DNA of 61,859 bases from an uncultured Oligoflexia bacterium (GTDB taxonomy: Bacteria; Bdellovibrionota; UBA1018; CAYHWW01). The notes under the pieces were generated by a model. It saw only the letters and a list, made by a program, of their open reading frames with translations, was not told the origin of the DNA and ran no database searches. The translations under genes and the position numbers were made by a program. Numbering within the stretch: the first letter of the stretch is position 1; each line of letters opens with the position of its first letter. This document shows, one piece after another, positions 1,717-53,578 of the stretch. The DNA lies in the NCBI GenBank assembly GCA_964360145.1, contig CAYHWW010000003.1, positions 1 to 61,859 on the forward strand, read 5' to 3'.

Positions 1717-3414
1717 CTACTTATTCTCTTTGGCCCAGGAATCCCGCAGCGTGGCGGTGCGGTTGAAGACCAAGGTGGATCCCGAACGGTGATCCCGTCG
1801 GTCCGCCACAAAGTAGCCCAGGCGTTCAAACTGAAAACGGTCTTCGGGCTTTGCCTCCGCGAGGCCAGGTTCCACCCAGCACTCAGAAAGGGTTTCGAGG
1901 GACTTGGGGTTGAGCTTGTCTAAGAAGTCATCACCAGGGAGCTGTACGGTGAGCATGCGGTCATACATCCGGACTTCTGCTTTTTTGCCATGGGTCGCGG
2001 AGACCCAGTGAATGGTGCCTTTGACTTTGCGACCATCCGGCGTGTTGCCGCCAGTGGTCGCTGGATCATAGGTGCAGTGCACGGCGGTGACCTTGCCGCT
2101 GCTGTCTTTCACCACGTTCACGCATTTCACGATGTAGGCTCCGCGGAGCCGCACTTCACCGCCGGGCTGGAGGCGGAAGTATTTGGGCGGCGGTGTTTCC
2201 ATGAAGTCATCTTGCTCGATGTAGACTTCACGGCTGAACGGGACTTTGCGCGTGCCCCTGTCGGCGTGGACGGGGTGTCGCGGCAGCTCGAACTCTTCGG
2301 TCTTCGCTTCGGGGTAGTTATCGATGATGAGCTTCAGGGGTCTCAGCACCGCCATGGCCCGGGGGGCGCTGCGATCCAGGTCCTCGCGGACGCAGTTTTC
2401 CAAGACGGCGAAGTCAATGCAGCTGTCTTTTTTCGTGACGCCCACGCGTTCGCAGAAATCGCGGATGGCCGCAGGAGTGTAACCCCTGCGGCGCAAACCC
2501 TGGATGGTGGGCATGCGAGGGTCGTCCCAACCGCTTACGCGGTTCTGCTCCACGAGCTCGAGGAGCTTGCGTTTGCTCATCACCGTATAGTCGATGTTGA
2601 GGCGGGCGAACTCGATCTGTTGGGGATGGCACGGTGTTTTCAGTGTATCCAGAATCCAGTCGTAAAAGGGGCGGTGATCCTCAAACTCCAAGGTGCAGAT
2701 GGAGTGGGTGATGCCCTCCAGCATGTCGGAGAGGGGATGGGCGTAGTCGTACATGGGGTAGATGCACCACTTGCTGCCCGTCTGATGGTGCTCCGCATGG
2801 CGGATGCGGTAGAGCGCGGGGTCCCGTAAGTTCACGTTGCCCGACTTCATGTCGATTTTGGCGCGGAGAATGTGGGCGCCGTCGGGGAATTCGCCATTGC
2901 GCATGCGGGCGAAGAGATCCAGGTTCTCTTCGATGGTGCGGTTGCGATGGGGCGATTCTTTGCCTGGTTCAGTGAGGGACCCGCGGCTTTTGCGCATTTC
3001 TTCGGCACTTTGGCTATCCACGTAGGCTTTGCCCATTTTAATGAGGGTCACCGCGTAGTCGTGGATTTTCTCGAAGTAGTCCGAGGCGTTGTGGAGGCCA
3101 GCCCATTCAAAACCAAGCCAGCGCACGTCTTCTTGAATGGACTCCACGTACTCCACGTCTTCTTTGGCGGGGTTTGTGTCATCAAAACGCAGGTTGCACC
3201 TGCCCTTGTAGTCGCGGGCGAGCCCGAAGTTGAGGCAGATGCTTTTCGCATGCCCGATGTGGAGGTAGCCGTTGGGCTCCGGCGGGAAGCGCGTGACGAC
3301 CTTGCCACCAAACTTGCCTGTGCGGTGATCCTCATCAATGATCTGGCGGATGAAGTTCGACGGGGCTGGGGGCGTCGTAGTGAGTGGTGTTGATACCGGG
3401 CTCTGCGTAGACAT
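1717..3414 (-). CDS. glnS: glutamine--tRNA ligase
   Basis: HIGH motif ([14 protein letters not shown]) and KMSKS-type motif (VMSKR), with a full-length GlnRS-like sequence. The ATG at 3414 is preferred over the upstream GTG at 3432. Confidence 0.9.
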
Positions 3415-3481
3415 ATCCACATGAATTAGCACAGTACACTAGCCTCTGTCTTCCCAGACTATGCTAGCCTGAATCACGAAT

Positions 3482-5530
3482 ATGATGACGCCCCTCCATG
3501 AGATCTTGCACCAACGTTTTGGCTTTACTGCTTTTCGCCCCCACCAAGAAGAGGTCTGCGAGGCTGCTGCGGCCGGGGATGACGTGCTCCTCGTCATGCC
3601 CACAGGCGCTGGGAAATCCCTTTGTTACCAGATCCCAGGACTGGCTCGTGGTGGCGTGACCCTGGTCATCAGCCCCTTGGTGGCCCTCATCGAAGACCAA
3701 GTGGCGGCGCTGCGGGCCAGGGGCGGACCACGGCCCTTACGAGCAGAGCGTATCCACTCAGGGCGAGACCGGGAAGCGTCGCGTCAGGTCTGCATGAGTT
3801 ATCTCAAAGGTGAGCTGGATTTTCTCTTCATCGCGCCAGAGCGTTTGGCTGTGCCCGGCTTCCTCGAGATGCTGGCCAAGCGAAAACCCTCACTGATTGC
3901 CGTTGACGAAGCCCACTGCATTTCCCAGTGGGGCCATGATTTTAGGCCCGAGTACCGCATGCTAGGCCAAAGATTACCGGCCCTGCGGCCCGCCCCCGTC
4001 ATCGCGCTCACTGCCACCGCCACGGCCCGGGTCCAAGAAGACATCTGCGCGGGGCTCAGCATGCCGGGAGCGCGGCGCTTCATCCATGGGTTCCGCCGGG
4101 GAAATATCGCCGTTGAAGTCGTGGAGATGAACCCGGGGGAGCGCATCAAGACCACCATGGAGCTCCTGACACCGGCGGAGCGGCGCCCGGCCATTGTCTA
4201 TGCTCCCACCCGCAAGCGCGCTGAGGAAGTCTGTGAGGCAATGAAAAGCCGCTTCTCCGTGGGCACCTACCATGCGGGGATGACGGCGCTGCAACGGGAG
4301 AAGGCTCAGAACGGATTTCTCAGTGGCGACATCGATGTCATGGTGGCCACGATTGCCTTCGGCATGGGCATCGATAAAGCCAATGTGCGCACCGTGGCTC
4401 ACCTGGCCTTGCCCTCAAGCATCGAGGCTTATTATCAAGAGATTGGTCGTGCGGGGCGGGACGGGGCTCCTTCACGGGCGGTGCTTCTCCAGTCCTACAT
4501 CGATCGTAAGACCCACGAGTTCTTCCGCGATCGTGATTATCCAGAGCTCCATGTGCTGCAGAGCGTGTTTGCCGCCAGTGGCGCGGAACCCTGTGACAGC
4601 GATGAGCTGTTGGCGCGCAGCGAGTTGACCGAGGTGGATTTCTCACGAGCTTTGGAAAAACTATGGATTCATGGCGGCGTGGTCATCGATGGGGACCAGC
4701 GCGTGAAGCGCGGCGCCGAAGGTTGGCAGAAGGCCTATGCCGCGCAGCGGGCCCATCGGGATCGTCAGCTTGAGGACGTGACTCGTTTTGCGGAGGGCAC
4801 GGGCTGTCGCATGACGGCGTTGGTGCGGCATTTTGGAGATAAAGACGATGCGGGCGCTGACTGCGGCACCTGTGATTGGTGCGCGCCCGCCCAGGCCCTT
4901 TGTGCTGCGACCCGCACTCGCCCCCTCAATGAAGCAGAGCGCGGCATCGCCCTCTGGGTCTTGAATGCGCTCGCCACGGCGGGGGCAGGTGGGGATGGGG
5001 CCCCTTCCACAGGGAAGCTCGCCCGGGACTGGGCGGGGGATCGTCGGCTCTTCGAGCGGGTGATCACAGCGCTTTCCAAGGCAAGGCTCCTTTCTTTCTA
5101 TGACGATTCTTTTGAAAAGGACGGCAGCGTCATTCGGTTCCGGCGGGTCTATCTCAGTGAGGATGGTCGAGTGTTGCGCAATGCAGACCAGCGATTGGCT
5201 TCGCTCAATGATGTGCGCATCAGCGAAGAGCTGGCGAAATCGAAAGCTTCCAAGAGCAAGAGGAGTGGCAAGGGCCGCTCTTCCGCTGAGGGGCAGCCAG
5301 CAGTGGGAAGCCCCGCGCCAGAGACCGTGACAGCATTAAAATCCTGGAGGCTTGCCATCGCACGCAGCGAAAAAGTGCCCGCCTTCCGCATTTTGTCGGA
5401 CAGAGTGCTGATGGCCATTGCCGCTGCCCGCCCCGAGAATCAGGACGCGTTGCTCGCGGTCCATGGCATGGGCCCTCGACTTTGCGAGAAATTCGGTCGG
5501 GATATCCTTGGAGTATTGCGCTCCGGCTAA
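3482..5530 (+). CDS. recQ: RecQ-family ATP-dependent DNA helicase
   Basis: Walker A MPTGAGKS, DEAH box VDEAHCISQWGHDFRPEY, and an HRDC-like C-terminus (FRILSDRVLMAIAAARPENQDALLAVHGMG). Confidence 0.85.
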   Translation: MMTPLHEILHQRFGFTAFRPHQEEVCEAAAAGDDVLLVMPTGAGKSLCYQIPGLARGGVTLVISPLVALIEDQVAALRARGGPRPLRAERIHSGRDREASRQVCMSYLKGELDFLFIAPERLAVPGFLEMLAKRKPSLIAVDEAHCISQWGHDFRPEYRMLGQRLPALRPAPVIALTATATARVQEDICAGLSMPGARRFIHGFRRGNIAVEVVEMNPGERIKTTMELLTPAERRPAIVYAPTRKRAEEVCEAMKSRFSVGTYHAGMTALQREKAQNGFLSGDIDVMVATIAFGMGIDKANVRTVAHLALPSSIEAYYQEIGRAGRDGAPSRAVLLQSYIDRKTHEFFRDRDYPELHVLQSVFAASGAEPCDSDELLARSELTEVDFSRALEKLWIHGGVVIDGDQRVKRGAEGWQKAYAAQRAHRDRQLEDVTRFAEGTGCRMTALVRHFGDKDDAGADCGTCDWCAPAQALCAATRTRPLNEAERGIALWVLNALATAGAGGDGAPSTGKLARDWAGDRRLFERVITALSKARLLSFYDDSFEKDGSVIRFRRVYLSEDGRVLRNADQRLASLNDVRISEELAKSKASKSKRSGKGRSSAEGQPAVGSPAPETVTALKSWRLAIARSEKVPAFRILSDRVLMAIAAARPENQDALLAVHGMGPRLCEKFGRDILGVLRSG

Positions 5531-9187: not shown

Positions 9188-9232
9188 CATCCCCAGGTGA
9201 ACAGGGAGCAATCCCGTGTTCACCTGGGGATG
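9188..9232. repeat. hairpin with perfect 16-bp inverted-repeat arms
   Basis: CATCCCCAGGTGAACA (9188-9203) and TGTTCACCTGGGGATG (9217-9232) flank a 13-nt loop that contains a GGGA/TCCC mini-stem. TTTTATTT follows on the plus strand only. Confidence 0.6.
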
Positions 9233-9244
9233 TTTTATTTCAGG

Positions 9245-9985
9245 CTATTGTTCGAGTTGGGTGGCGAGTTCTTGGTCGCTGGCCAAGATCATGCCTTCCA
9301 TGCCAGGGACCAGCGTGCCGTTCTTGGCCATGCCGTAGATCCGGTCAGACAGGGCAGGGGCCAGTCGCTCCACCATGACCCGGCGAGCGAGGCGAGACAG
9401 GGGTTTGCAGAACGAGCCCAGGAGCGGGTGCTCCTTAGAGGCCTGCTTGCAAGCGAAGTAGGCGCCCCAGTAGGTCACCACGCCGGCAAAGGGCGTGAAG
9501 TGCTGGCGGTATTCCATCATGTCCCAGGTGTCTTGGCCGCGGGGGTCGCCATTGGGGTGGAACACCACGGGGATTGCGAAATTCATGACGTGGATGTCGT
9601 AAAGGACGGTGCCTTCAAGACGCTGGCGGCCGAGGCGGCTTTCCAGCATGTCATAGATCTGGGCCAGCGTACCGTTCAAGGGGGTATGGTCGCCCAGGCC
9701 CAGCAGGCTGACTAAGTCTTGGGCTTCACGCCAGCGGCGGCGTACCCACTCCGCATCAGCGCCATGGCCTTCTCTTTCCAAGGTGATGGCAGCCTCTTCC
9801 ACTACGAGGTTGAGGGCCAGGCGGGCCACGGGGCCCAGGTTGAACTCAGCGAGGTCATGGGCCGTGCCGTCGAATGAAGCGACGATGGCCTGGCGGTGAG
9901 CCGGTGTGGCCATCTGTTCCGCTTGGGCAGTGACCGCACCGAAGAACAGAGCTGCTATGAACCAATACGCACGTCGTTGTGCCAT
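9245..9985 (-). CDS. hypothetical secreted protein
   Basis: Signal peptide MAQRRAYWFIAALFFGAVTAQA. The ATG at 9985 is preceded by a GGAGGGAGA SD. I recognised no domain. Confidence 0.6.
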   Translation of the reverse strand: MAQRRAYWFIAALFFGAVTAQAEQMATPAHRQAIVASFDGTAHDLAEFNLGPVARLALNLVVEEAAITLEREGHGADAEWVRRRWREAQDLVSLLGLGDHTPLNGTLAQIYDMLESRLGRQRLEGTVLYDIHVMNFAIPVVFHPNGDPRGQDTWDMMEYRQHFTPFAGVVTYWGAYFACKQASKEHPLLGSFCKPLSRLARRVMVERLAPALSDRIYGMAKNGTLVPGMEGMILASDQELATQLEQ

Positions 9986-10116
9986 AAAAATCTCCCTCCA
10001 ATGGAGAATGTGGTTATTTTGTAGTGATAGGGTCTCGCCGCCGCCTCGTTTTGCCAAGAGAGGCTGAATAAAATAAATTGATGCGGAGCGGCTGATCGGG
10101 TTATGCCAGCCGCATC

Positions 10117-11352
10117 ATGGCCACGAACACCCGCGTCCCCACCGCCGAGTATCTGTACTCTCTGCCTGAGAATCTCATCGCCACTCATCCCCTGGCGGAT
10201 CGCAGCGGCTCACGCCTGCTCCTGACTCGCGGTTCCAATGGCCTCGTGGAGCATCGCCGCTTCGGCGAGCTTCCGGTGTTGCTGCCCCCCCAGAGCTTCC
10301 TTGTCCTGAACGACACCAAGGTGGTGCGGGCTCGCCTCCATGCTCGCAAGGCCACGGGAGGCGCCGCGGAAATCCTGTGTTTGGAGCCCCTTCGCCCCAG
10401 CGCTGATCCCGTGGCGGCATTGGCTTCACGAGGCGGCGCGTGGCGCTGTCTCATTGGTGGCAAGAATATTCAGAGCGGCGACGTGCTGACCCTCGATGGT
10501 GCCGCGGGTGTTGCTGACGGCGCCCGGGCCACCATCGTGGAAAAAAATGGCGCCGAGGCCTTGGTGGAGTTCGAGCTGCCCTGCACCCTGGGTGAGTTCC
10601 TCCAGCGGGTGGGGCGCACGCCGCTCCCTCCCTACATCAAGCGGGAGGCCACCGCGGACGATGTCTCGTCCTATCAAACAGTTTATGCTGAGAAGGACGG
10701 CTCCGTGGCGGCCCCCACCGCGGGCCTCCATTTCAGTCGGGATACCCTGAAGGCCCTGTACCAGAGCGGGCACCTCATGGGGCGCGTGACCCTGCACGTG
10801 GGCGCGGGCACTTTCCGCCCCGTGGAGGCGGAAGATGCCAGGGACCATGTCATGCACGGCGAGCGCTTTGAAGTGAGCCGGGATTTCATCGTGAGCCTGG
10901 AGCATCACCTCCGCGCCGTCAAACCCATCGTGGCGGTGGGCACCACCAGCGCCCGCACCTTGGAGAGCCTTTATTGGCTGGGCGTGCAAGCCCTCTTGAA
11001 GGGGCTACCCAAAGACGATGCAGGCGATGTGAATCTGGGCCAGTGGCCCTGGGCGGAAGACTGGGGACGGGCGTTGCCGCTGCCCGCCCTCGCCTTGCAG
11101 GGTCTCATCCAGTGGATCGACGCCCGGGGTTTGATCGGGCTGAGAGGCCGCACTCAGCTCATGATCGTGCCGGGTTATGAGTTCCAAACCCTGCGAGGCC
11201 TTGTGACCAATTTCCACCAGCCCGAGAGCTCGCTGGTGCTCCTCGTCGCGGCATTCCTGGGTAAAGACCTGTGGAAGCGTGCCTACGCGGAGGCCGTGGA
11301 GCGCGAGTATCGTTTCTTGAGCTATGGGGATTCGTCGCTGTTGTTGAGGTAG
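10117..11352 (+). CDS. queA: S-adenosylmethionine:tRNA ribosyltransferase-isomerase
   Basis: QueA motifs: YLYSLPENLIATHP, PLPPYIKRE, VGTTSARTLES, FHQPESSL. At 411 aa it is longer than typical QueA proteins. Confidence 0.9.
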   Translation: MATNTRVPTAEYLYSLPENLIATHPLADRSGSRLLLTRGSNGLVEHRRFGELPVLLPPQSFLVLNDTKVVRARLHARKATGGAAEILCLEPLRPSADPVAALASRGGAWRCLIGGKNIQSGDVLTLDGAAGVADGARATIVEKNGAEALVEFELPCTLGEFLQRVGRTPLPPYIKREATADDVSSYQTVYAEKDGSVAAPTAGLHFSRDTLKALYQSGHLMGRVTLHVGAGTFRPVEAEDARDHVMHGERFEVSRDFIVSLEHHLRAVKPIVAVGTTSARTLESLYWLGVQALLKGLPKDDAGDVNLGQWPWAEDWGRALPLPALALQGLIQWIDARGLIGLRGRTQLMIVPGYEFQTLRGLVTNFHQPESSLVLLVAAFLGKDLWKRAYAEAVEREYRFLSYGDSSLLLR

Positions 11353-11359
11353 TCGTTGA

Positions 11360-13858
11360 TTAGGGCTCGCACAGGTTTTCAAAGAAAGCTGCGCGGTGGA
11401 TGCGCAAAGCTTCGTAGTTTTCTAAGCTATTGCGCCCTGCGCGATCACGACTGTAATCGTTCGGTGACATACTGAGATAGCGTTGAAGGTCCTCATCCGT
11501 GGCCACCGGCGGCCGCAGTTTTCTCATAATAGAGTGTATGGGCGTATAGGCGTCGAAGACATGAGGCGGGAGTATATCACTTATGACACCTTTGAAAGAA
11601 ATGCGGCCACCGCTTGGTGTTCTTACAGTGTCACTCCGCGTCTCTTGATGTGCGACCCAGAGTCTCATCAAGCGACTTGGGCTGATGCCGCGCAGGTATC
11701 TGCGCCATGCCGTTGTGATCACGTTATGGAGTTGCTGGCTTGCCCTCTCATTTCCAAGAGCAAGGGCTGAGATATCAAGAGCATTCCCCGAGATACGATA
11801 GAGGGTTGAGGGGCTGGCGGCGCCAGGCAGCGGGCCCTGATGAATCCTGATCCTTTGGATTTGCGGCGGGATCAACGCACGGGAGCCGTTATTCGTGGGG
11901 CTTCTCAGTAGGTCATTTGCAGAATGTCTCAGGCGGTGGAGCTGTGTTTCCGTCCAAAAATCAGAGGGTACCAGCTCATACTCGATCTCAGGGGCCACGG
12001 ACACACCCGGCGCGATGCTGATATTGCAATGGCTCAAAATCCCTCGCTCCTCGGAGGTGAGAGTCAGTATGGAGAGCAGCCTTCCGATCTGTTGACTGGC
12101 CAAGCTATACAGGGTCAGTTCACGGGTAGCATTCAAGTCCCGGGCGTAAAACCACCGTTGGGGATGAAAAGACTGGATGCTCTCATCAGCGAGAAGCTCA
12201 GCGAGGAAGAGTTCCTCGTTCGCGGGCCACGGCGTCGCTCTATGTAGATTCAATAGTTGAATCAGTGGCGATAGGTATGAGTGAATATGTTCAGTCAGGA
12301 AGTTCGCAGGCAAGGCGAGCGCATTTGCCGTGCGGAGCAGCGCGGGATCGGAGTAGTATTGAAGGAAATGGATAAAGTCATCTCGTTCAAAGGGGATCGA
12401 TAAGACATCTAGGATGCGGTAGTGATAGTTGGTGTAGAGGTAAGCCACCCGGCTTCGCAGCATGGCAATGCCGTCGACTCCACCACGGGGCATGGTGACC
12501 GTGTGATGGGCTTCGTCATGTGTGTCTAAGAAATGTTCATTGTCGGGCGTGTGCGATACCGGTGCCCCGGTTCTGAAAATGACCTGTGTCCTGGCTCTGA
12601 TGTTCGACGGGAAGTTAAAGAGGCGTTGATGCACCTCGATATCAGCGAAGGCGGTCAGCTCCCAGCTGCAATGGAAGAGAGGCTCTTCCGCGCCGTTGGC
12701 CGCCTGGCAATGATAGATAAATCCACCGCTTTCCGCGCTCAGCAAGAGGGGGATGGACGTGATGTCATTGTGGAGCGTGGTGGCATTCGTGGCATCGAGA
12801 CTCAGGGTGCTGAGGATGCGCGCCGTCCCCGCGCCGTCCTCCGTGGTGTGGCGCGACTCTCTGCCCAAGGTAATGCGGCGAGTATACCGCAAAGTCGCAG
12901 CTCGCTCTTCTGAAGACGCAAGTTCGTCCCGCAGCCGCCGCAGGTACTCGCTGCATGTATGGAGAGTGGTCTGAGGGGCGCAGGCCACTAACGTGTGTAC
13001 GCCGAGCAGGTTCACGAGGTCTTCTTGACTCTCGATAAGGGGCTTCAAAGCATTGAGGTTCTCTCTCGTGCTGGAGGCTGGTGAGACGCGCACATCTATA
13101 ACCAGTTCGTCGCCACTTCCTATGACGCCGCGGCGTTCAAATCCATCGGTGCCGCCGAGGGTGATGGTGCCGAAGCGAGAGTGCAGCAGCCCGGAATGCC
13201 AGGAACCGAGAAACAGTTCCAGGGCACGGGCAGTCGTGGCGCAACTCTGTGCTTGTTCCATGCCCCGCAGCAGGGGCCGCCCCTCCGCATTGCGTGGCGA
13301 CAGGGCATTGAAGTCGCAAAGCACCGCATTGACGTGGCTGCCCCGTGCGCGCTCGGTGCGCGTCAGCTCAGCGTTGGCGAGCGCAAATGCGCCGAGGAGG
13401 GCCCGACGTTCAGCGATGGGCGCCATGGCGTTGAGGAGGAACTGCCTGCCGCGGACGCCGCCGGGCCCCGCGGACGGGGTGTCGAGAAAAACGTGAATGT
13501 GGTCGATGCCCCGGGGGATGAAATCCACAGCGGGGGTTGCGGCGAGAGCCCCATTGATGAGGTCGAGGGTCTCCAGGCAGCGGCGGGCCCAGGCGGGGTC
13601 CGTCATGAGGCGTGATGCGCAGCCTACGCGGATGGGGCTGTGTGCGAGGCGCGTCGCCGCCAGCCGTGCTTGCCGTGCGAGGCGGGGGGCGCGCACCGTG
13701 CGAATCGAGTTGAGATCGACGGTGTCGTAGCTCTCCGTCGCGAAGCCTTCCACGCTCTCGACAAAGACGTCGAGCGCCCTCTGGGCATGGGCCAGGGAGG
13801 CAGAGAAGAACAGGGTCGCGGCGAGGAGGAGGGATTTCACGAACCTCCAATAATGCAA
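11360..13858 (-). CDS. large hypothetical secreted protein (832 aa)
   Basis: Long uninterrupted ORF with signal peptide MHYWRFVKSLLLAATLFFSASLAHA. I recognised no domain. Confidence 0.7.
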   Translation of the reverse strand: MHYWRFVKSLLLAATLFFSASLAHAQRALDVFVESVEGFATESYDTVDLNSIRTVRAPRLARQARLAATRLAHSPIRVGCASRLMTDPAWARRCLETLDLINGALAATPAVDFIPRGIDHIHVFLDTPSAGPGGVRGRQFLLNAMAPIAERRALLGAFALANAELTRTERARGSHVNAVLCDFNALSPRNAEGRPLLRGMEQAQSCATTARALELFLGSWHSGLLHSRFGTITLGGTDGFERRGVIGSGDELVIDVRVSPASSTRENLNALKPLIESQEDLVNLLGVHTLVACAPQTTLHTCSEYLRRLRDELASSEERAATLRYTRRITLGRESRHTTEDGAGTARILSTLSLDATNATTLHNDITSIPLLLSAESGGFIYHCQAANGAEEPLFHCSWELTAFADIEVHQRLFNFPSNIRARTQVIFRTGAPVSHTPDNEHFLDTHDEAHHTVTMPRGGVDGIAMLRSRVAYLYTNYHYRILDVLSIPFERDDFIHFLQYYSDPALLRTANALALPANFLTEHIHSYLSPLIQLLNLHRATPWPANEELFLAELLADESIQSFHPQRWFYARDLNATRELTLYSLASQQIGRLLSILTLTSEERGILSHCNISIAPGVSVAPEIEYELVPSDFWTETQLHRLRHSANDLLRSPTNNGSRALIPPQIQRIRIHQGPLPGAASPSTLYRISGNALDISALALGNERASQQLHNVITTAWRRYLRGISPSRLMRLWVAHQETRSDTVRTPSGGRISFKGVISDILPPHVFDAYTPIHSIMRKLRPPVATDEDLQRYLSMSPNDYSRDRAGRNSLENYEALRIHRAAFFENLCEP

Positions 13859-13998
13859 ATCCGAGGCGAGCCGAGGAAATAAATAGGGCAGTGGTTACAG
13901 GCGGTTAGCCGGGGTTATGGCGCGATCTCTGTCGATCTTTTGTGCAGATGCGCAGGATATCATCTGCCAAAAGTTATCCTGTTCTTGACTATAAACAT

Positions 13999-15513
13999 AT
14001 GTTATTGATGGCCATGTTCTTTGGCAGTGCATCGCTTCATCTTCTGCTTTTCGTTCTTTCCGCGGTGCCTGCTTTGACTTGGGCGGCGGACGAACAAGGG
14101 CCTCACCCCACGCCTCGCCTGCGTAAAAATGCATGCTTCTTCAGCATCACGCCCTACCTCAAACAAATGCAAGCCCTGGCGGGGAAACGAGTGCGTGTCA
14201 GCGCTAAAGGGGTAGCGCAGCCTCGGGTGGGCTTCCTGCCCGCGGTGATTACCGAGAGTATGAGTTTCATCACTCTCTACAGCGAGCCCCCACATGGGCA
14301 CTCCATGAGTTTTGCTCAGACTATGATGATGATACCCCTCACCGAAGTCGACGGGGATATCATCATCGATCCTCCCCAGACCGTCGCCCTGCCCGGAGCA
14401 GGAGTGGGGCTGTGGATGCCCAGTGGAGAAATGATCTCAACGTTTGGAAACGGCAGCTACGTGAGCCTTCCCGACGTTCGTGGCGAGCCCATGGCTGCCC
14501 GTGTGTTGGCCATCAACCCACGGACCTCTGAGGTCACCTTGCAAATTCCTCAAGAAGACGTGGGCGCCCTCGTGTTTTTCGAACTCATCACCAGTGCCGA
14601 CCAGGCAGCTCAGTTGCGCCTCAGCGAGACCAGTAAACGATTCTTTGAGTCCTATGAACTGAATACGGCTCTGCGACGCAGCACTTTACCGTCCGTGCGA
14701 GAATCTTGGCCTGATGTCACTACCACGGCAGTGGAAAACGACGTGGCCCAGGCCTTCATCGAGGCCCACCGTGTTTTTGACCCCGCTGCCGCGCTGGGGG
14801 CCCATGGCATCATGGCACTCCATGCACTCATCCAATATCCCGCACCTGACTCTGCTCTTGCTCCAAATTTTGCCACGCCCGGCCTTACAGCAAGGAGCAT
14901 GGGCCTTCACGATGTCGAACAGACGCGCAACGAAGATGGCACTCTTCTCACCGTGGGGTTTGTGGCAGGCCAGCAGGTTCATAACCTGCCGGATGACCAC
15001 TGGTTCAGGGCAACCTTAAATGCCAACAGTTTAGAAGCAAAAGAATACCGCCCCAAGGTTTACATCGCGCTCCCTCCCGATCGCTTGGCGGAGCTGCTGC
15101 CGATGATCATCGCAAAAGCGGCCGCGGCTGATTGCCATCAGCTCAAATTCGGCGCCACCTGGAACGACCTCATTCGCGACGACCGCATGGTTCTGCATTT
15201 CAATAACTTTGAGAGCTCCGTGCGCTTTGCCAAAGAACTGGACCTCATGCTCACGGCGCTGGGCATGGAGGGCCCCCCATCGGCTGCATTCACCTATCGT
15301 TTGGGTAAAAGCCCCGTAAGCATCGGCTTTGACCCGCCATGGGGGGAATCATGGCGGTACTACGTCTCCCGCAGAGTGCGCGACGTCCTCGGTGCTGGGA
15401 GCAGGGATGCAGAGAGTTTCACCAGCGGCTTAGCCGCCCACGACATCGTGGCGGGCCACTGGACACCCTCGATGATTCACGAACGTTTTTTAAGGGCGCT
15501 TTCCGCTCCCTGA
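13999..15513 (+). CDS. hypothetical secreted protein (about 505 aa)
   Basis: Long ORF. The internal ATG at 13999 gives a signal-peptide-like MLLMAMFFGSASLHLLLFVLSAVPALTWA; the ORF-track start is a GTG at 13942. I recognised no confident domain. Confidence 0.6.
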   Translation: MLLMAMFFGSASLHLLLFVLSAVPALTWAADEQGPHPTPRLRKNACFFSITPYLKQMQALAGKRVRVSAKGVAQPRVGFLPAVITESMSFITLYSEPPHGHSMSFAQTMMMIPLTEVDGDIIIDPPQTVALPGAGVGLWMPSGEMISTFGNGSYVSLPDVRGEPMAARVLAINPRTSEVTLQIPQEDVGALVFFELITSADQAAQLRLSETSKRFFESYELNTALRRSTLPSVRESWPDVTTTAVENDVAQAFIEAHRVFDPAAALGAHGIMALHALIQYPAPDSALAPNFATPGLTARSMGLHDVEQTRNEDGTLLTVGFVAGQQVHNLPDDHWFRATLNANSLEAKEYRPKVYIALPPDRLAELLPMIIAKAAAADCHQLKFGATWNDLIRDDRMVLHFNNFESSVRFAKELDLMLTALGMEGPPSAAFTYRLGKSPVSIGFDPPWGESWRYYVSRRVRDVLGAGSRDAESFTSGLAAHDIVAGHWTPSMIHERFLRALSAP

Positions 15514-15519
15514 ACGATC

Positions 15520-15554
15520 ACACCCACTAACGTGAGCACCACGTTAGCGGGTGT
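15520..15554. terminator. hairpin between convergent genes (possible bidirectional terminator)
   Basis: ACACCCACTAACGTG-agcac-CACGTTAGCGGGTGT, a 15-bp stem with one mismatch. It starts 7 nt after the plus-strand stop and overlaps the minus-strand stop codon. Confidence 0.45.
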
Positions 15555-16809
15555 AGGCCTGTGTTAACGCAAGACCGTGACGAGCCACTGTCTCGCCAGA
15601 AAGGGCGCACATGCGGTCCGTGGGGTCCAGGGTGTAGAACATGAAGGCATCCGCTTCATCGTCCCAAAACTCGGTGTAGCAGTCAGGAAAAGCCATGACG
15701 TGGCCAAATTCATGCTGCATGACGGTGCGAGTGTGCTCCAGCCACAACGGCGTGTTCGCATCCATGGTGATTTCACTGCCCCCAATGGAGTCTACGTGGG
15801 GAAGGGCGCCGGCCTCCCAAAGCACATGCACGCGCCCCAGGGGCCTGCGGCCTGGCTCGGCGCTGACCTCGATATTCAGCACGCTATTGTTCCAAGCCAG
15901 CGCCACTTCGCTGGCGATCCACTGTAGGATTTCCGCGGGGATATTTTCCGTGAAAAACTTCAAGCGCAGGACAGCGCCATCATGGGTAGCCTTCGTGCCG
16001 GCGTGAGCAGAGGGAATGAGAAACTTCTCGTCGTAGGCGCTTCGCCCTCTCTCAAAGATGCCCGCGAACCAACGCTCCGCCCGCCGTGAATTGCCGCTGA
16101 GGACGAGGCGTGCCGCTTCACGAGTGCACTTCGCCAGCGACTGCCCACCAATGGGGCATGCGGATACTGCCAAATGAACGGCATTACGACGAGTTTCTGC
16201 CGAAGCCCCCGTCCACTGACGGGCTAAGTCCATGAGCGCTTCACGCTCCGCCTGGAGTCTGAGCCAGGGGCGGAAATCGCGAGATGACTTGGAGAGCTGG
16301 AGGCGCCAGCGGGAAAGCATGATCCAACGACTGGCGCGGGAGTAAGCGGTGTGCACTTTGCGGATGCCCGGCATGGCGTCGGCAAGGGCAAGGCCCCCGG
16401 GCAAAGCGGTGGGCAGGTCGCCGCGGCCCTCGAGGATGTCCGCGAGACCAGGCAGTAGGGCGGAGCGGGCCTCTTCATAGAGCGCGATGATGATCGTTGG
16501 GTTGTAGGTCATGGGCTCCGCGGGGGAGGCCTCGTGCCCCACGCGATCAATGCGGCGCCAAATTTGCTCCCGCTGCTCAGCGGGCAGATTTGTTTGCAAC
16601 TGGTCTACCCAGGCCAAGGCTCGGGCGCCGGCATTGATGATTTCTTGGAGGGTAAGGTCCATGGCGCCAAGCCCACCCTGTTGTCGCAGGATCTGGGCTG
16701 CTTCTTGCGGACTGAGCAGAATCTCTAGTGGAGTGCGCATCTCCTCCGCCCGCACCGTGGTGGCGGCGGTCACCGCCATGATAAGCCCTAGCAAGTATCT
16801 GAAAGTCAT
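15544..16809 (-). CDS. secreted zinc metalloprotease-like protein (HExxH)
   Basis: Signal peptide MTFRYLLGLIMAVTAATTVRA and an HEFGH motif (MQHEFGHVMAFPDCY) near the C-terminus. Confidence 0.65.
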   Translation of the reverse strand: MTFRYLLGLIMAVTAATTVRAEEMRTPLEILLSPQEAAQILRQQGGLGAMDLTLQEIINAGARALAWVDQLQTNLPAEQREQIWRRIDRVGHEASPAEPMTYNPTIIIALYEEARSALLPGLADILEGRGDLPTALPGGLALADAMPGIRKVHTAYSRASRWIMLSRWRLQLSKSSRDFRPWLRLQAEREALMDLARQWTGASAETRRNAVHLAVSACPIGGQSLAKCTREAARLVLSGNSRRAERWFAGIFERGRSAYDEKFLIPSAHAGTKATHDGAVLRLKFFTENIPAEILQWIASEVALAWNNSVLNIEVSAEPGRRPLGRVHVLWEAGALPHVDSIGGSEITMDANTPLWLEHTRTVMQHEFGHVMAFPDCYTEFWDDEADAFMFYTLDPTDRMCALSGETVARHGLALTQAYTR

Positions 16810-24004: not shown

Positions 24005-24115
24005 ATCGCTCAGTGGCGCGTTTAAAAATCCAAAGGACGAGACGTGAGGCATCTTGTTGCCTGATTGAAAGAGCCATGCCATGCTCAATCTACTTTTCGC
24101 ACAAAGGAGATTTTC

Positions 24116-24316
24116 ATGAGTGAAGAAACCGAATCCAAAGAGGTCCTTGTAGTTGCATCCAAAGTGAAGAACTACATCCGTGCCAAGTCCGAGATGAATA
24201 CATCGGGCAAGGTCATGGAGGCTCTCACCGAGAAATTGCGTGGTCTCTGCGACCAGGCCATCGAAAATGCCCGCCGTGAGGGTCGTAAGACCGTCATGGA
24301 TAGGGATTTTCTGTAA
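24116..24316 (+). CDS. histone-fold protein (Bd0055/HBb-like bacterial histone), 66 aa
   Basis: MSEETESKEVLVVASKVKNYIRAKSEMNTSGKVMEALTEKLRGLCDQAIENARREGRKTVMDRDFL. An AAGGAG SD sits 6 nt upstream. It carries the GRKTV..D histone signature and aligns from memory with the Bdellovibrio Bd0055 histone. Confidence 0.7.
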   Translation: MSEETESKEVLVVASKVKNYIRAKSEMNTSGKVMEALTEKLRGLCDQAIENARREGRKTVMDRDFL

Positions 24317-24350
24317 GGCCCTAAGACTCGTTCTCATCTTTAAAAATAAG

Positions 24351-24382
24351 AAAGCCCGCCGGAGGAAACCCCGGCGGGCTTT
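24351..24382. terminator. bidirectional Rho-independent terminator
   Basis: AAAGCCCGCCGG-aggaaacc-CCGGCGGGCTTT, a 12-bp stem with an A-tract before and a T-tract after. It lies between the convergent histone and ferritin-like genes. Confidence 0.7.
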
Positions 24383-24409
24383 CTAGTTCCATGCTCTCGA
24401 TCGCCGCGC

Positions 24410-25349: not shown

Positions 25350-25583
25350 TTATTTCTTACCGCTCTTGGCTTTGCGGAAGGCGGCAGTGCGGTCACCGGA
25401 GCGCTTTTTCTTCGCTGCGAAATACGCAGTGGCGAATTCAGGCTCCTTATTGATGCGCTCTCTGCGGGCCTTGCGGGCAACCGTGCGCAACTCTTTGCGC
25501 TTCTTGCGGCTTTCAACGGTGGGGAGTTTCACTTTGGCTTTTTTAGCAGCCTTGGGGGCGGCTTCGGGTTGCGTTTCGCTCAT
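25350..25583 (-). CDS. small highly basic Lys/Arg-rich protein (77 aa)
   Basis: MSETQPEAAPKAAKKAKVKL...RKAKSGKK. The start overlaps the stop of the upstream regulator (ATGA). Confidence 0.5.
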   Translation of the reverse strand: MSETQPEAAPKAAKKAKVKLPTVESRKKRKELRTVARKARRERINKEPEFATAYFAAKKKRSGDRTAAFRKAKSGKK

Positions 25584-26161
25584 GGTTTGGAGACCTCCTG
25601 GAACAGGTTACGAATCTGCGCGATTTTCTGCAGAGCTGCAAGGTCCAATTGGCGGTCTTGGAACAGCATTCTCATGGCTTCAGACCCCATCTCCACTAAT
25701 CGAGACAGGCGTTTCAAGCGCTGGGCGGCAGTCTTGGCGGCTGCGTGATCCCCTATAACAGATGTTTCCCCACTTTTGGCAGCTTCTAGCGCCTCAGCCC
25801 CCACTTTAAGGGCATGGATCAAGCGCTCGAGCTGGTGGAGCTCCCGGCTCCTCACCACCCGGGAGAGCATGCTCCAAAGGTGGGTCTCTGCTCGGTAGTA
25901 GAACTGGCGGATGGAGGGGCGGGACTCGCGGGTGATCACGCCCCATTGCTCCAGCTCCTTCAAGGCCATGGACACCGCGCCGGTGGAGAGGCCCAAGTGG
26001 GAGCCGATCTCGCCGGCGGAAAGGGGTTCCGCGGCAAGATAGAGGAGGGCCCAAATGCGGCCCAAGACCCGCTTGAATCCCCAGAATTCGATGATGTCGC
26101 CCGTGGCCTCGCATACCACCCACACCGCATGATTCAAGCGGCGGGAGGGGTCGGCGGCCAC
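25580..26161 (-). CDS. GbsR/MarR-like winged-helix transcriptional regulator
   Basis: wHTH segment RIWALLYLAAEPLSAGEIGSHLGLSTGAVSMALKELEQWGVI. The start is uncertain: I chose the GTG at 26161 so that it does not overlap the upstream gene, and the ORF track extends to 26347. Confidence 0.55.
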   Translation of the reverse strand: MAADPSRRLNHAVWVVCEATGDIIEFWGFKRVLGRIWALLYLAAEPLSAGEIGSHLGLSTGAVSMALKELEQWGVITRESRPSIRQFYYRAETHLWSMLSRVVRSRELHQLERLIHALKVGAEALEAAKSGETSVIGDHAAAKTAAQRLKRLSRLVEMGSEAMRMLFQDRQLDLAALQKIAQIRNLFQEVSKP

Positions 26162-26165
26162 GGCC

Positions 26166-26897
26166 TCACGAGGAGGGGATTCGGTCTGCCCAAGCACGGT
26201 AAAACTCCCGGAAGTACCACTCGAAGAACGAATCGCCAAAGATGCGATCCATGAAAATTCTGAGGGGCGTGGTGATGAGGGTGGAATCGGCAAGGCTGCC
26301 CAGGGCGCCGCGGAGGGCGGCGTCCTTGATGGCGTTGACGTGGACATCCATGGTGGTGACGGTGAAGCGGTAGTGAAGGTGGGATTGGCCTTCAGGGCAT
26401 TCTGCGGAGGGGCTCTGGGCGTCTACGTCCACGGTGAAGGCTGATACGGCGTAGTTCTGGCGCACGGTGATGGGGCCCGTGGGGCTTGCGGGGTCAGCGC
26501 TGTGGTCGAGCTCGCAGTGATGGGTGAAGGCCTCGGCAGTGGCCGATGAATGGCATTGCAGCTTGAAGCGCGGGAAAAAAGAGGTGTCTGTGATGAACAT
26601 GGGCTGCATGAAGATAGCCACAGACCCGAGGGAGCCGTGTTCGTCGTGGGTGTTTGCGCCGCCTTCGATGGATCCGGATCTGGGGAGCACCATGTCCACG
26701 GCCCGGCGATCGCCGAGGAGGGGGAAGCGCATGGTGATGCCGTCGTCCAAGTTGGGGTAGTTGTTGTAGTTCACGAGCCACGTGTGGATCTGTTGGGGAG
26801 TGCGGGGAATGCAGCGCTCTTCTTCACCGACAAGGGCGTGGGCGGGGAGGGCTGCGGCGAAAGCGAGAGCGACTGTGGCAAAAGAGGCGATCTTCAT
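26166..26897 (-). CDS. hypothetical secreted protein
   Basis: Signal peptide MKIASFATVALAFAAALPAHA, and a 4-nt overlap with the upstream lipoprotein gene. Confidence 0.6.
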   Translation of the reverse strand: MKIASFATVALAFAAALPAHALVGEEERCIPRTPQQIHTWLVNYNNYPNLDDGITMRFPLLGDRRAVDMVLPRSGSIEGGANTHDEHGSLGSVAIFMQPMFITDTSFFPRFKLQCHSSATAEAFTHHCELDHSADPASPTGPITVRQNYAVSAFTVDVDAQSPSAECPEGQSHLHYRFTVTTMDVHVNAIKDAALRGALGSLADSTLITTPLRIFMDRIFGDSFFEWYFREFYRAWADRIPSS

Positions 26898-49816: not shown

Positions 49817-50854
49817 ATGGGGTTCAAGCCGCTACTGCTTTTTTCAGGTTATTTTCTTTTCTTAGCCCAACCACTCCTGGCAACGCCTTTGGCGACACAA
49901 AAAAATGTGCTGCAGCGGGCTAAGGACGCGGTGACCACCGCCATGGCGTCCGCACGGCTGGGCGCGAGGGCTAAGCACTTTTATTTGGAAGAAGTGGTGC
50001 CGTACTCAGTCTCTTTCGTGGACGAGTCCGGTGTGGCCTCTTCCGCGCGGATCCAGGATTATTTGCAATTCACAGCCGATGGCCTCGCGACGGTGGAAGA
50101 GGAGGGCCGCAAGACGGTCCCGCTCTGCTACGAGATTCGTGCTGAGGAGGGGTGTGAGTCCTGCGTACAGGCCAGGGACGAGATCGTGAAGTATCTTCCC
50201 AAGCGGTTATCTCGGCGCGGATTCGACGTGCGAGCCTTCGCGGGGCCCACGGTAATCGCCGAAGAGCCCGGTCATGGCACGGGGGACACTTCCGTATTGG
50301 CACCGTTTGAGGCGTACCTCGCGCAAGCCCAGCAGGCGGGCTGCCCCCACGCCTTCTGGGGTTCCCTTTCGCTCGGGGATCGTGGGGCGCTTCGCGGAGT
50401 CTTCTATGCGGATGTCAGGGATACGGGCAAGCGCCACTACCGCGTGGGCTTTCAGGATGTGGTCAGGCGCGATGGCAAGGATGAGGCCCTCTTCGCGCCC
50501 GGCGTGATCTTCCTCGTGCGTGCAACTGAAGCTGTTTATAGTGGCCTCGTCTCCCAGCGACGGGCGGCATCCAACACGGGGGAAGCAGAGGGGCCGTTGC
50601 GGTTAGTGCGGCTTGAGAACGTCGCGACCTTCGCCGACTACGTCATCTTCAAAAAGAAGCTCGTGGATGGCCTTGAAGGTTTGCAAGACCTCGCGGAACG
50701 CACCATGACCCCCGGCTTCGTGGAGTTCGCCGTGGTGGGGGATATCTCGATGGCACAGCTCTCCGCGAAGATCGTCAACACCGTGGGGGCCGAGCCTGTC
50801 ATTGACTCTGTAAAACTCGAGGGTGGTAACATTCTAAGGGTGGTTCTGAAATGA
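49817..50854 (+). CDS. hypothetical secreted protein
   Basis: N-terminal hydrophobic signal, and ATGA overlap with the following lipoprotein gene. I recognised no domain. Confidence 0.55.
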   Translation: MGFKPLLLFSGYFLFLAQPLLATPLATQKNVLQRAKDAVTTAMASARLGARAKHFYLEEVVPYSVSFVDESGVASSARIQDYLQFTADGLATVEEEGRKTVPLCYEIRAEEGCESCVQARDEIVKYLPKRLSRRGFDVRAFAGPTVIAEEPGHGTGDTSVLAPFEAYLAQAQQAGCPHAFWGSLSLGDRGALRGVFYADVRDTGKRHYRVGFQDVVRRDGKDEALFAPGVIFLVRATEAVYSGLVSQRRAASNTGEAEGPLRLVRLENVATFADYVIFKKKLVDGLEGLQDLAERTMTPGFVEFAVVGDISMAQLSAKIVNTVGAEPVIDSVKLEGGNILRVVLK

Positions 50855-52417: not shown

Positions 52418-53578
52418 TCAGAACGGCTCTATGACCACGTATCTCTCGAGGGCAGCGCGGAGCGCGGTAGGGCACTGGGCGGCATCCTGGAACTGGAGAC
52501 GAAAAGGGTAGGCTGTATAAATGGGGACACTGGGGTTGGCGTTTAGGTTGTAATCTGCTGTCAGTGTCATGCTCGCCGGGTATCCCGGAGATAAAACAAA
52601 TTCATACCCTCCGTGTAAACCACCACTACAGGCAGTATTTACGATGGAATCGATTGTCCCGGCATCCATGGCGATGGAGCCAGGCAGCGTAAGGTTACCC
52701 ACTCGTATTAGCCGGTGCTCCCGCATCGCTTGGGGCGAATCGATCTCGTACCAGGCGAGATCAATCTTAGTGTAGGGCGTGTAGCCCCGCAGCATTGCTG
52801 GTGTGACAGCGGTGAGGGTCAAGATGTTAAAGGGGGTTGTCCCCGGCAGAGCTCTTTCTGTTTCAAAGTCATGGGAGAAGAGAAAACCAACGTAGGCGCG
52901 GGCCTCAGCGCTTGATTGATAGTGTTCCACCTCGGTCATTGCCGCCAGGCAATCCCGGCGGCCAGATCCTTCAGGAAGCCGGAAACATGCGACGTAACCC
53001 GGCAATCTGCGTTCGCGTTGGGAAAGCGGCATCAGGGCATAACTGACTTCGTGGAATATCAACGCTGCCCGGTGGGCCAGTGAAAGGCGATTCCAGTGCT
53101 CGCGGTGGATGCGGATGGCGCCATCGCGGCGAACCGCCAGTTGAACGGGGCGGCCCCCGGGGAACTCAATGACTGAGTCCTCGTCCTGAATATCCATGAG
53201 CCGCGGGGCAACAATCGCCCAGTGATAAGCACGGATCGCTTTCGCGTAGGTCAAGGCCAAGCCAGGACTGAAACTCTCGATTTCGCGTAGCTTGCCCACA
53301 ATTAAATCCACGGGGAAAACAGAGGGGTCCAAGGCTTGCGAAATGGAGTCCATCCATATTTGGCTGGGCGCACGGGGGGGGCGAACCCGAGGGCTGGACT
53401 CGACGCCTGCCTCGACTAAATCCAGGAGATACAAATGACCATTCATGATGATGCCATCACCACCATTGCCGGCACGGTCGTCAGCGGAGTGCGCCGCCGT
53501 GGGCACCACGGAGAGGGCCAACAAGAGGAGGGGTAGGATGAAAAAGCCACGAGATTCACTGACGGATTTTGTTTTCAT
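52418..53578 (-). CDS. secreted hypothetical protein (GNGG/HE motif family)
   Basis: Signal peptide FFILPLLLLALSVVPTAAHS followed by AGNGGDG. It overlaps the upstream TIGR02147-type gene by 23 nt. Confidence 0.6.
   Translation of the reverse strand: MKTKSVSESRGFFILPLLLLALSVVPTAAHSADDRAGNGGDGIIMNGHLYLLDLVEAGVESSPRVRPPRAPSQIWMDSISQALDPSVFPVDLIVGKLREIESFSPGLALTYAKAIRAYHWAIVAPRLMDIQDEDSVIEFPGGRPVQLAVRRDGAIRIHREHWNRLSLAHRAALIFHEVSYALMPLSQRERRLPGYVACFRLPEGSGRRDCLAAMTEVEHYQSSAEARAYVGFLFSHDFETERALPGTTPFNILTLTAVTPAMLRGYTPYTKIDLAWYEIDSPQAMREHRLIRVGNLTLPGSIAMDAGTIDSIVNTACSGGLHGGYEFVLSPGYPASMTLTADYNLNANPSVPIYTAYPFRLQFQDAAQCPTALRAALERYVVIEPF

Follow-up and report, generated by a model that had tools for sequence, protein, structure and literature searches.

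The 61,859-nucleotide stretch of DNA analysed here (contig CAYHWW010000003.1 of assembly GCA_964360145.1, from an uncultured Oligoflexia bacterium; hereafter the window) encodes on its plus strand a 66-residue protein that is very probably a stand-alone singlet histone, a member of the alpha3-truncated 'bacterial dimer' class typified by HBb (Bd0055) of Bdellovibrio bacteriovorus. The gene faces a convergent gene for a ferritin-like protein, and a GC-rich hairpin lies between the two (Table 1). On its 5' side the frame is closed by a TGA at 24062-24064, 51 nt before the ATG; the protein could therefore gain no more than 17 codons at its N-terminus, the open reading frame (ORF) can encode at most 83 residues, and a fused upstream domain is ruled out. 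Comparison of the ORF with 70 homologous genes from other genomes gives 792, 553 and 2483 differences at the first, second and third codon positions, respectively, and the codon changes against the same genes are synonymous in 1618 cases and non-synonymous in 1109; the ORF is a real gene under strong purifying selection.

Sequence searches place the protein beside HBb. With the single sequence as a phmmer query against all PDB chains, HBb (8CMP, 8FVX) comes first (E=7.7e-13, residues 8-65), followed by HLp of Leptospira perolatii (9QT0, 9e-9), HTkC of Thermococcus kodakarensis (9F2C, 9e-6), and then HmvA and archaeal histone A. A family profile built from 48 members and searched against the PDB matches HBb at E=1.3e-22, HLp at 1.7e-12, HTkC at 1.7e-8, HmvA at 3.4e-5, archaeal histone A at 0.007 and HMfB at 0.27. 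The bit scores for HBb, HLp and HTkC are 51, 39 and 29 with the single sequence and 83, 50 and 38 with the profile, and a tblastn search of the window with HBb finds one locus only, at 48% identity over 58 residues (E=2.6e-15). A sequence-only reading of this DNA had quoted exactly this product and had aligned it with Bd0055 (EVLVV.SKVK...MNTS...GRKTVM.RD). The phmmer match to 8CMP and 8FVX reproduces that alignment, and the HBb-like histone-fold identity that it proposed is borne out by homology to three crystallised alpha3-truncated histones, by conserved residues, by matching predicted helices and by the Bdellovibrionota host.

The conservation extends to the residues through which HBb works; positions in the window protein are numbered as in HBb plus six. 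Those reported to touch DNA in co-crystals of HBb (S9, K10, K12, T23, S24, K52, T53 and R57; PMC11317129) are kept as S15, K16, K18, T29, S30, K58, T59 and R63, and the RD clamp R51-D58 is kept as R57-D64; D49 of HBb, which augments the clamp (PMC11317129), is conservatively replaced by E55. The Ser-Lys motif that opens alpha1 (S15-K16) is present together with K18, and K16 of HBb corresponds to R22. The hydrophobic dimer core is also retained (V11, L31, I35, L38 and I59 of HBb are V17, L37, L41, L44 and F65), and the RKTxxxxD motif reads R57-K58-T59-V60-M61-D62-R63-D64. Across 48 relatives there is no variation at S15, K16, N28, T29, G56, R57, K58, T59, R63 or D64. With HBb of strain HD100 (PDB 8CMP, 8FVX, 8FW7, 9EZZ, 9F0E), to which the identity of 48% applies over essentially the full length, the protein further shares the MNTS loop L1, the GRKTVM.RD segment of L2 and alpha3, a conserved cysteine in alpha2, a short alpha2, a one-turn alpha3, a small stand-alone gene and the phylum of its host.

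An AlphaFold2 monomer model calculated from a 48-sequence alignment (mean predicted local distance difference test score 78.5) has helices at residues 2-25 and 30-54 and a turn at 60-62, and the order and boundaries of these elements are those of alpha1, alpha2 and alpha3 of HBb shifted by six. In a comparison with HMfB, alpha2 is shorter by four residues, and only two residues follow the clamp aspartate; an alpha2 reduced by four or five residues relative to nucleosomal histones and an alpha3 cut to a single turn of three or four residues are hallmarks of alpha3-truncated and bacterial singlet histones (PMC11390915, PMC10627809). The nucleosomal archaeal histones (HMfB/HMfA, HTkA) have the GRKT loop and the RD clamp in common with the window protein, but the homology, confined to the end of alpha2, L2 and alpha3, is detectable at profile level only. 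Histones of the bacterial singlet class lack the sprocket arginine and the residues of the four-helix bundle (PMC10627809), and with these residues missing, alpha2 shortened and alpha3 cut to one turn, formation of a hypernucleosome is not expected. Three features place the protein in the 'bacterial dimer' category, which was defined through sequence clustering by Schwab et al., rather than among the face-to-face (FtF), ZZ or nucleosomal histones. The positions that define FtF histones (R48 and N52 in the numbering of the FtF profile) are N51 and E55; the lysine of RKT is present; and the positions at which HBb was mutated to make it tetramerise ('Bd0055-tetra': S45F, A48H, I61L; PMC10627809) are N51, R54 and a residue that does not exist in the shorter chain.

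The protein departs from HBb at both ends. Its N-terminal tail, MSEETESK, is acidic and eight residues long, whereas HBb begins MAEVLVV; its chain stops right after DRDF, with L66 at the position of V60 of HBb, so that four residues are missing relative to the HBb end (...VIDHL) and I61 has no counterpart. T8, K13 and D49 of HBb are A14, N19 and E55. These departures are common to most of the more than 70 closest relatives and are thus features of a clade; an acidic N-terminal tail, of median length nine residues, occurs in 61 of 72 relatives. The acidic tail and the minimal C-terminus are the only structural departure from HBb.

Some of these observations count against the assignment, namely the tail that HBb lacks, the loss of its last four residues, and the non-conservation of T8 and K13. 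So do the results of several searches. The Pfam model PF00808 (CBFD_NFYB_HMF) scores 17.6 bits (E=0.0049), under its gathering score of 21.4, and the NCBIfam model NF043032 (archaea_histone) scores 21.2 bits, under its cut-off of 50; an hhalign comparison with HMfB spans only the end of alpha2, L2 and alpha3, with a probability of 58%; and Foldseek with the AlphaFold2 monomer model returned no PDB match at E<=10 and nothing significant in BFVD. The shortfall of the two curated models is a sensitivity limit of models applied to a divergent clade, and it explains why nearly all homologues lack a Pfam annotation: among the 120 homologues listed, a single one (P0041) carries a precomputed match. 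The Foldseek result is read as a failure of sensitivity: the search started from a monomer model of what is an obligate dimer, only 66 residues long and all helical. Given the strong sequence homology to crystal structures, it is not counted against the fold. The fold is accordingly supported by homology and secondary structure, without an independent three-dimensional match. Of the checks that the sequence-only reading had named as able to refute the fold, the profile searches gave a significant result, and the Foldseek searches with the monomer model did not.

Expression signals lie on both sides of the gene. Its AAGGAG Shine-Dalgarno (SD) sequence was predicted by the sequence-only reading and is present; AAGGAGAT is invariant in four loci (the window and the related loci L090, L091 and L087), and an SD-like motif occurs in 51 of 74 related loci. 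The window shares a conserved block of about 75 nt before the ATG with L090 and L091, which encode 94% identical histones, even though the gene upstream of the block points the same way as the histone gene in the window and away from it in L090 and L091; the core of the block (TTG.C...ATG.CA) is still found in L087. It is comparative conservation that suggests the candidate promoter given in Table 1, which falls within this block; a scan for the sigma-70 consensus upstream of the histone gene made no plus-strand call, a negative that counts against the main reading of the locus. Beyond the stop codon, the arms of the hairpin form a perfect 14-nt inverted repeat (24349-24362/24371-24384) that extends to 16 pairs, with a folding energy of about -31 kcal/mol (z=-3.5) that none of 200 shuffled sequences equals. 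Its canonical T-run, TTATTTTT, sits on the minus strand and its plus-strand tail is UUUCUAGUU; this arrangement, together with its place between convergent genes, marks it as a bidirectional terminator shared by both. The sequence-only reading had credited the histone gene with a 12-bp GC-rich terminator of its own; the hairpin is there, but it is longer and it is shared. In L090 and L087, too, a GC-rich hairpin stands at the same position after the histone gene, but its sequence differs each time.

Table 1. Features of the histone locus, elements of the histone protein and other genes of the window
Feature	Position	Strand	Basis or remark
Histone gene (66 aa; alpha3-truncated, very probably 'bacterial dimer', HBb type)	24116..24316	+	ATG at 24116, TAA ending at 24316; ORF calls, homology, codon bias, predicted helices
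Shine-Dalgarno sequence AAGGAG	24104..24109	+	6 nt 5' of the ATG
Candidate promoter	24057..24085	+	-35-like TTGCCT 24057-24062, 17-nt spacer, -10-like CATGCT 24080-24085; inferred
GC-rich hairpin, bidirectional intrinsic terminator	24349..24384		shared by the histone (+) and ferritin-like (-) genes, which converge on it
Acidic N-terminal tail of the histone	residues 1-8		
alpha1	residues 9-25 (approximate)		
L1	residues 26-29		
alpha2	residues 30-54		
L2	residues 55-59		G56-R57-K58-T59
alpha3	residues 60-65		one turn
Ferritin-like protein, 150 aa	24410..24862	-	PF00210 E=6e-16; convergent with the histone gene
Lys/Arg/Ala-rich protein, 77 aa	25350..25583	-	start overlaps the stop of a MarR-type regulator gene (25580..26347)
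Class I Glu/Gln-type aminoacyl-tRNA synthetase	1717..3432	-	both C-terminal anticodon-binding domains, consistent with GlnRS

Comparison with L087 sets the gene apart from its surroundings. The histone of L087 (5001..5201 of that locus) is 82% identical to that of the window and occupies the same interval in the opposite relative orientation. The interval is flanked in both loci by colinear blocks, one running from MurF to MarR, the small Lys/Arg-rich protein and a lipoprotein, the other comprising FAH and FecR; the ferritin-like, 286-aa, DUF4423(-HTH) and GST genes are absent from the interval in L087, having been either gained in the window or lost from L087. The syntenic neighbours are only 31-62% identical, so the histone is the most conserved gene of the neighbourhood, which fits strong constraint on an important protein. 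An invertible element around the gene was considered and rejected, as no inverted repeats flank the gene apart from the terminator hairpin. The strong SD sequence, the conserved upstream block, the hairpin past the stop codon in three contexts and the flipped orientation argue for an autonomous transcription unit, in agreement with the monocistron proposed by the sequence-only reading; alpha3 histone genes are generally single-gene operons (Schwab et al., PMC11390915), and the histone gene is plausibly a highly expressed unit of this kind.

Three other accounts of the ORF were weighed. If the protein were an FtF histone like HLp (9QT0-2) and HTkC, which belong to the same alpha3-truncated family, have a similar length and carry an R.T....D motif, two of its dimers would join in a torus-shaped tetramer with about 60 bp of DNA wrapped around it. 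Its similarity to both proteins is significant, by single sequence and by profile; FtF histones are known from the class Bacteriovoracia of the Bdellovibrionota (PMC11390915), several of the related loci are labelled Bacteriovoracaceae, and in the alignment HTkC, too, carries E in place of N at 'N52'. The match to HBb is nevertheless far stronger on either set of bit scores, both of the positions through which FtF tetramers form are different (R48 is N51 and N52 is E55), the lysine of RKT is one that the FtF profile does not have, and E55 mirrors the clamp-augmenting D49 of HBb. An FtF histone is therefore an unlikely identity for the protein. That the ORF is spurious or decaying, without a functional product, would be a natural suspicion for 66 codons in a GC-rich window where many spurious ORFs overlap; but at least 1,437 homologous clusters at E<=1e-3, the best of them 91-94% identical, together with the third-position bias, the invariant functional residues and the intact SD sequence and terminator, effectively refute it.

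It is also conceivable that a genuine histone fold has been recruited to a role other than that of a global nucleoid protein, as a specific regulator or as the partner of another protein. Schwab et al. caution that prokaryotic histone-fold proteins need not all organise genomes (PMC11390915); the window protein has a near-neutral charge (13 Lys/Arg against 12 Asp/Glu) and an acidic tail; 30 of 71 related loci link the histone gene tightly to a gene for an FKBP-type isomerase; and relatives exist as fusions to ZZ domains. On the other hand, the residues with which HBb touches DNA are retained and are invariant across the clade, HBb is likewise near-neutral and yet is an essential protein that binds DNA, no partner gene is conserved beside the window gene, and no gene of the neighbourhood is better conserved than the histone. 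Recruitment to a non-architectural role is thus very improbable, and an HBb-type singlet histone is the reading followed below.

By homology with HBb, two chains would pair antiparallel through an alpha2 'handshake' to give a histone-fold dimer, and the protein may be an abundant nucleoid protein that compacts or coats the chromosome. Dimers in solution, non-specific DNA binding, high abundance, association with the nucleoid and essentiality go with the class, and the strong SD sequence and a conservation above that of the adjacent genes lend them indirect support here. Because neither the four-helix bundle nor the FtF interface can form, the window protein should act like HBb, for which two modes have been put forward: isolated dimers would bend DNA in the manner of HU and IHF (Hu et al. 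2024, PMC11317129), or dimers bound end-on would cover straight DNA with a dense sheath (Hocher et al. 2023, PMC10627809). Nucleosome-like wrapping of DNA would not be expected under either.

The family to which the protein belongs is large. Clustering at 90% identity gives at least 1,437 clusters and clustering at 50% identity gives 577 representatives, both at E<=1e-3, with 231 of the latter kind at E<=1e-10; at least 501 loci were found in species-representative genomes. Many of the 50%-identity representatives (P0241-P0390) are doublets, with two matched stretches in 126-274 residues, and others have N-terminal extensions of 40-190 residues before a C-terminal histone domain, which indicates considerable architectural diversity around the singlet of the window. 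The sequence-only reading had presented such proteins as rare and only recently characterised. Rarity holds across bacteria, where 1.86% of genomes overall have histone folds (PMC10627809); within the Bdellovibrionota, histones are common and already surveyed, with hundreds of members, and the novelty was overstated.

One of the other architectures, the known ZZ histone with a ZZ-type zinc finger fused N-terminally to the histone domain, is represented in the related locus L004 by a 163-aa protein (4081..4572), the histone domain of which is 72% identical to the window protein and has a similar short acidic linker or tail. The window gene, unlike the ZZ histones, encodes a singlet, with the in-frame stop lying upstream of its ATG, and none of the reading frames of the 61-kb window shows a ZZ-like Cys/His pattern. 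The L004 fusion has an SD-like AAAAGGAG before an internal methionine that aligns with the singlet start, and an internal start giving a free histone is conceivable there.

In the 30 loci with an FKBP linkage (L002 and 29 others among L001-L080), the histone gene lies directly downstream of the gene for an FKBP-type peptidyl-prolyl isomerase, on the same strand; in L002, for example, the FKBP gene (9229..9945) is separated from the histone gene (9977..10192) by a gap of 31 nt, and the FKBP signal peptide is lipoprotein-like. The C-terminus of the histone-linked FKBP proteins reads ...IPPNATLVFEVELL. The window itself contains no FKBP-type isomerase gene, and no mention of the linkage was found in the bacterial-histone papers searched. 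There is a small chance that this large, uncharacterised HBb-like sub-clade, with its acidic tail, DRDF end, identity to HBb of about 50% and frequent FKBP link, assembles on DNA differently from HBb. The acidic tail, which adjoins the DNA-contact turn of alpha1, could tune or auto-inhibit DNA binding, or could mediate contacts between dimers in a filament. On this same unlikely reading, the histone might also be the principal chromatin protein of uncultured groundwater Bdellovibrionota.

The sequence-only reading had also proposed that nucleoid-associated functions cluster around the gene, with a convergent ferritin-like neighbour of Dps type and a Lys/Arg-rich protein 1 kb away. The neighbour is indeed ferritin-like, but the Dps label is unsupported: its closest PDB chain is 2QQY (named 'Sigma B operon' by its depositors; E=1.3e-8), followed by bacterioferritins and ferritins, a 'Dps-like' chain gives a weak match (2.4e-4), and tblastn of the window with Escherichia coli Dps and Bfr does not match the gene. 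The two genes are neighbours only in relatives whose histones are at least 94% identical. The region has a single sigma-70-like promoter match, on the minus strand at 24894-24865, immediately 5' of the ferritin-like gene. The 77-aa protein is present as described; it belongs to no Pfam or NCBIfam family and is a near-orphan, with three clusters among 5.8 billion proteins. A 64-aa counterpart (56% identity over 52 residues) also follows MarR in L087. The protein is a conserved, MarR-linked small basic protein, and nothing found for it suggests a role in the nucleoid. A tblastn search with 13 neighbours from the window gave no match in any of 80 related loci, each covered to 10 kb on both sides of its histone gene. 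A conserved nucleoid-function cluster is therefore rejected, all the more so as the ferritin-like gene is missing from the relative with the 82% identical histone, and the apparent cluster is coincidental. No gene for HU, IHF or Fis was found in the 61-kb window by tblastn with E. coli queries, a search confined to this part of the genome.

The remainder of the window is unremarkable core chromosome. Its core genes include those for GlnRS, RecQ, QueA, MurF, L28, GuaB, GuaA and DnaE, and it also encodes a radical-SAM methylthiotransferase-like protein (UPF0004 and Radical_SAM domains); its GC content is even, and neither an Rfam nor a tRNA scan detected RNA genes in it. A mobile-element or viral origin was rejected on account of the core housekeeping context and the lack of a compositional anomaly. 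Five ORFs (832, 523, 421, 345 and 386 aa; 11360..16809, 49817..50854, 52418..53578) have no Pfam match at E<=1e-5. The named relatives of the IMP dehydrogenase GuaB are all from Bdellovibrionota (68-79% identity), and the closest genome matches of the histone (62-79%) are mostly metagenome-assembled genomes of Oligoflexia, Bdellovibrionales or Bacteriovoracaceae. The host is an uncultured member of the Bdellovibrionota. The identical protein occurs on six contigs from Hain_H52 samples (0.1 µm fraction), with the same gene order in all.

Bacterial histones were established only in 2023-2025, and whether HBb organises DNA by bending or by sheathing is still debated. To this field the locus adds a correctly identified HBb-type member from an uncultured groundwater lineage of the Bdellovibrionota. 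The structure and biochemistry of the family, its distribution in the phylum, its motifs and its single-gene organisation have been described since 2023, and that picture is unchanged. Pfam and NCBIfam models miss most of the clade, so that such genes are usually annotated as 'hypothetical'. The added value is comparative and modest: the histone is the best-conserved gene of its neighbourhood and a self-contained unit whose orientation flips from one relative to another. Two small leads for work on bacterial chromatin are the acidic tail found across the clade and the frequent linkage to FKBP genes.

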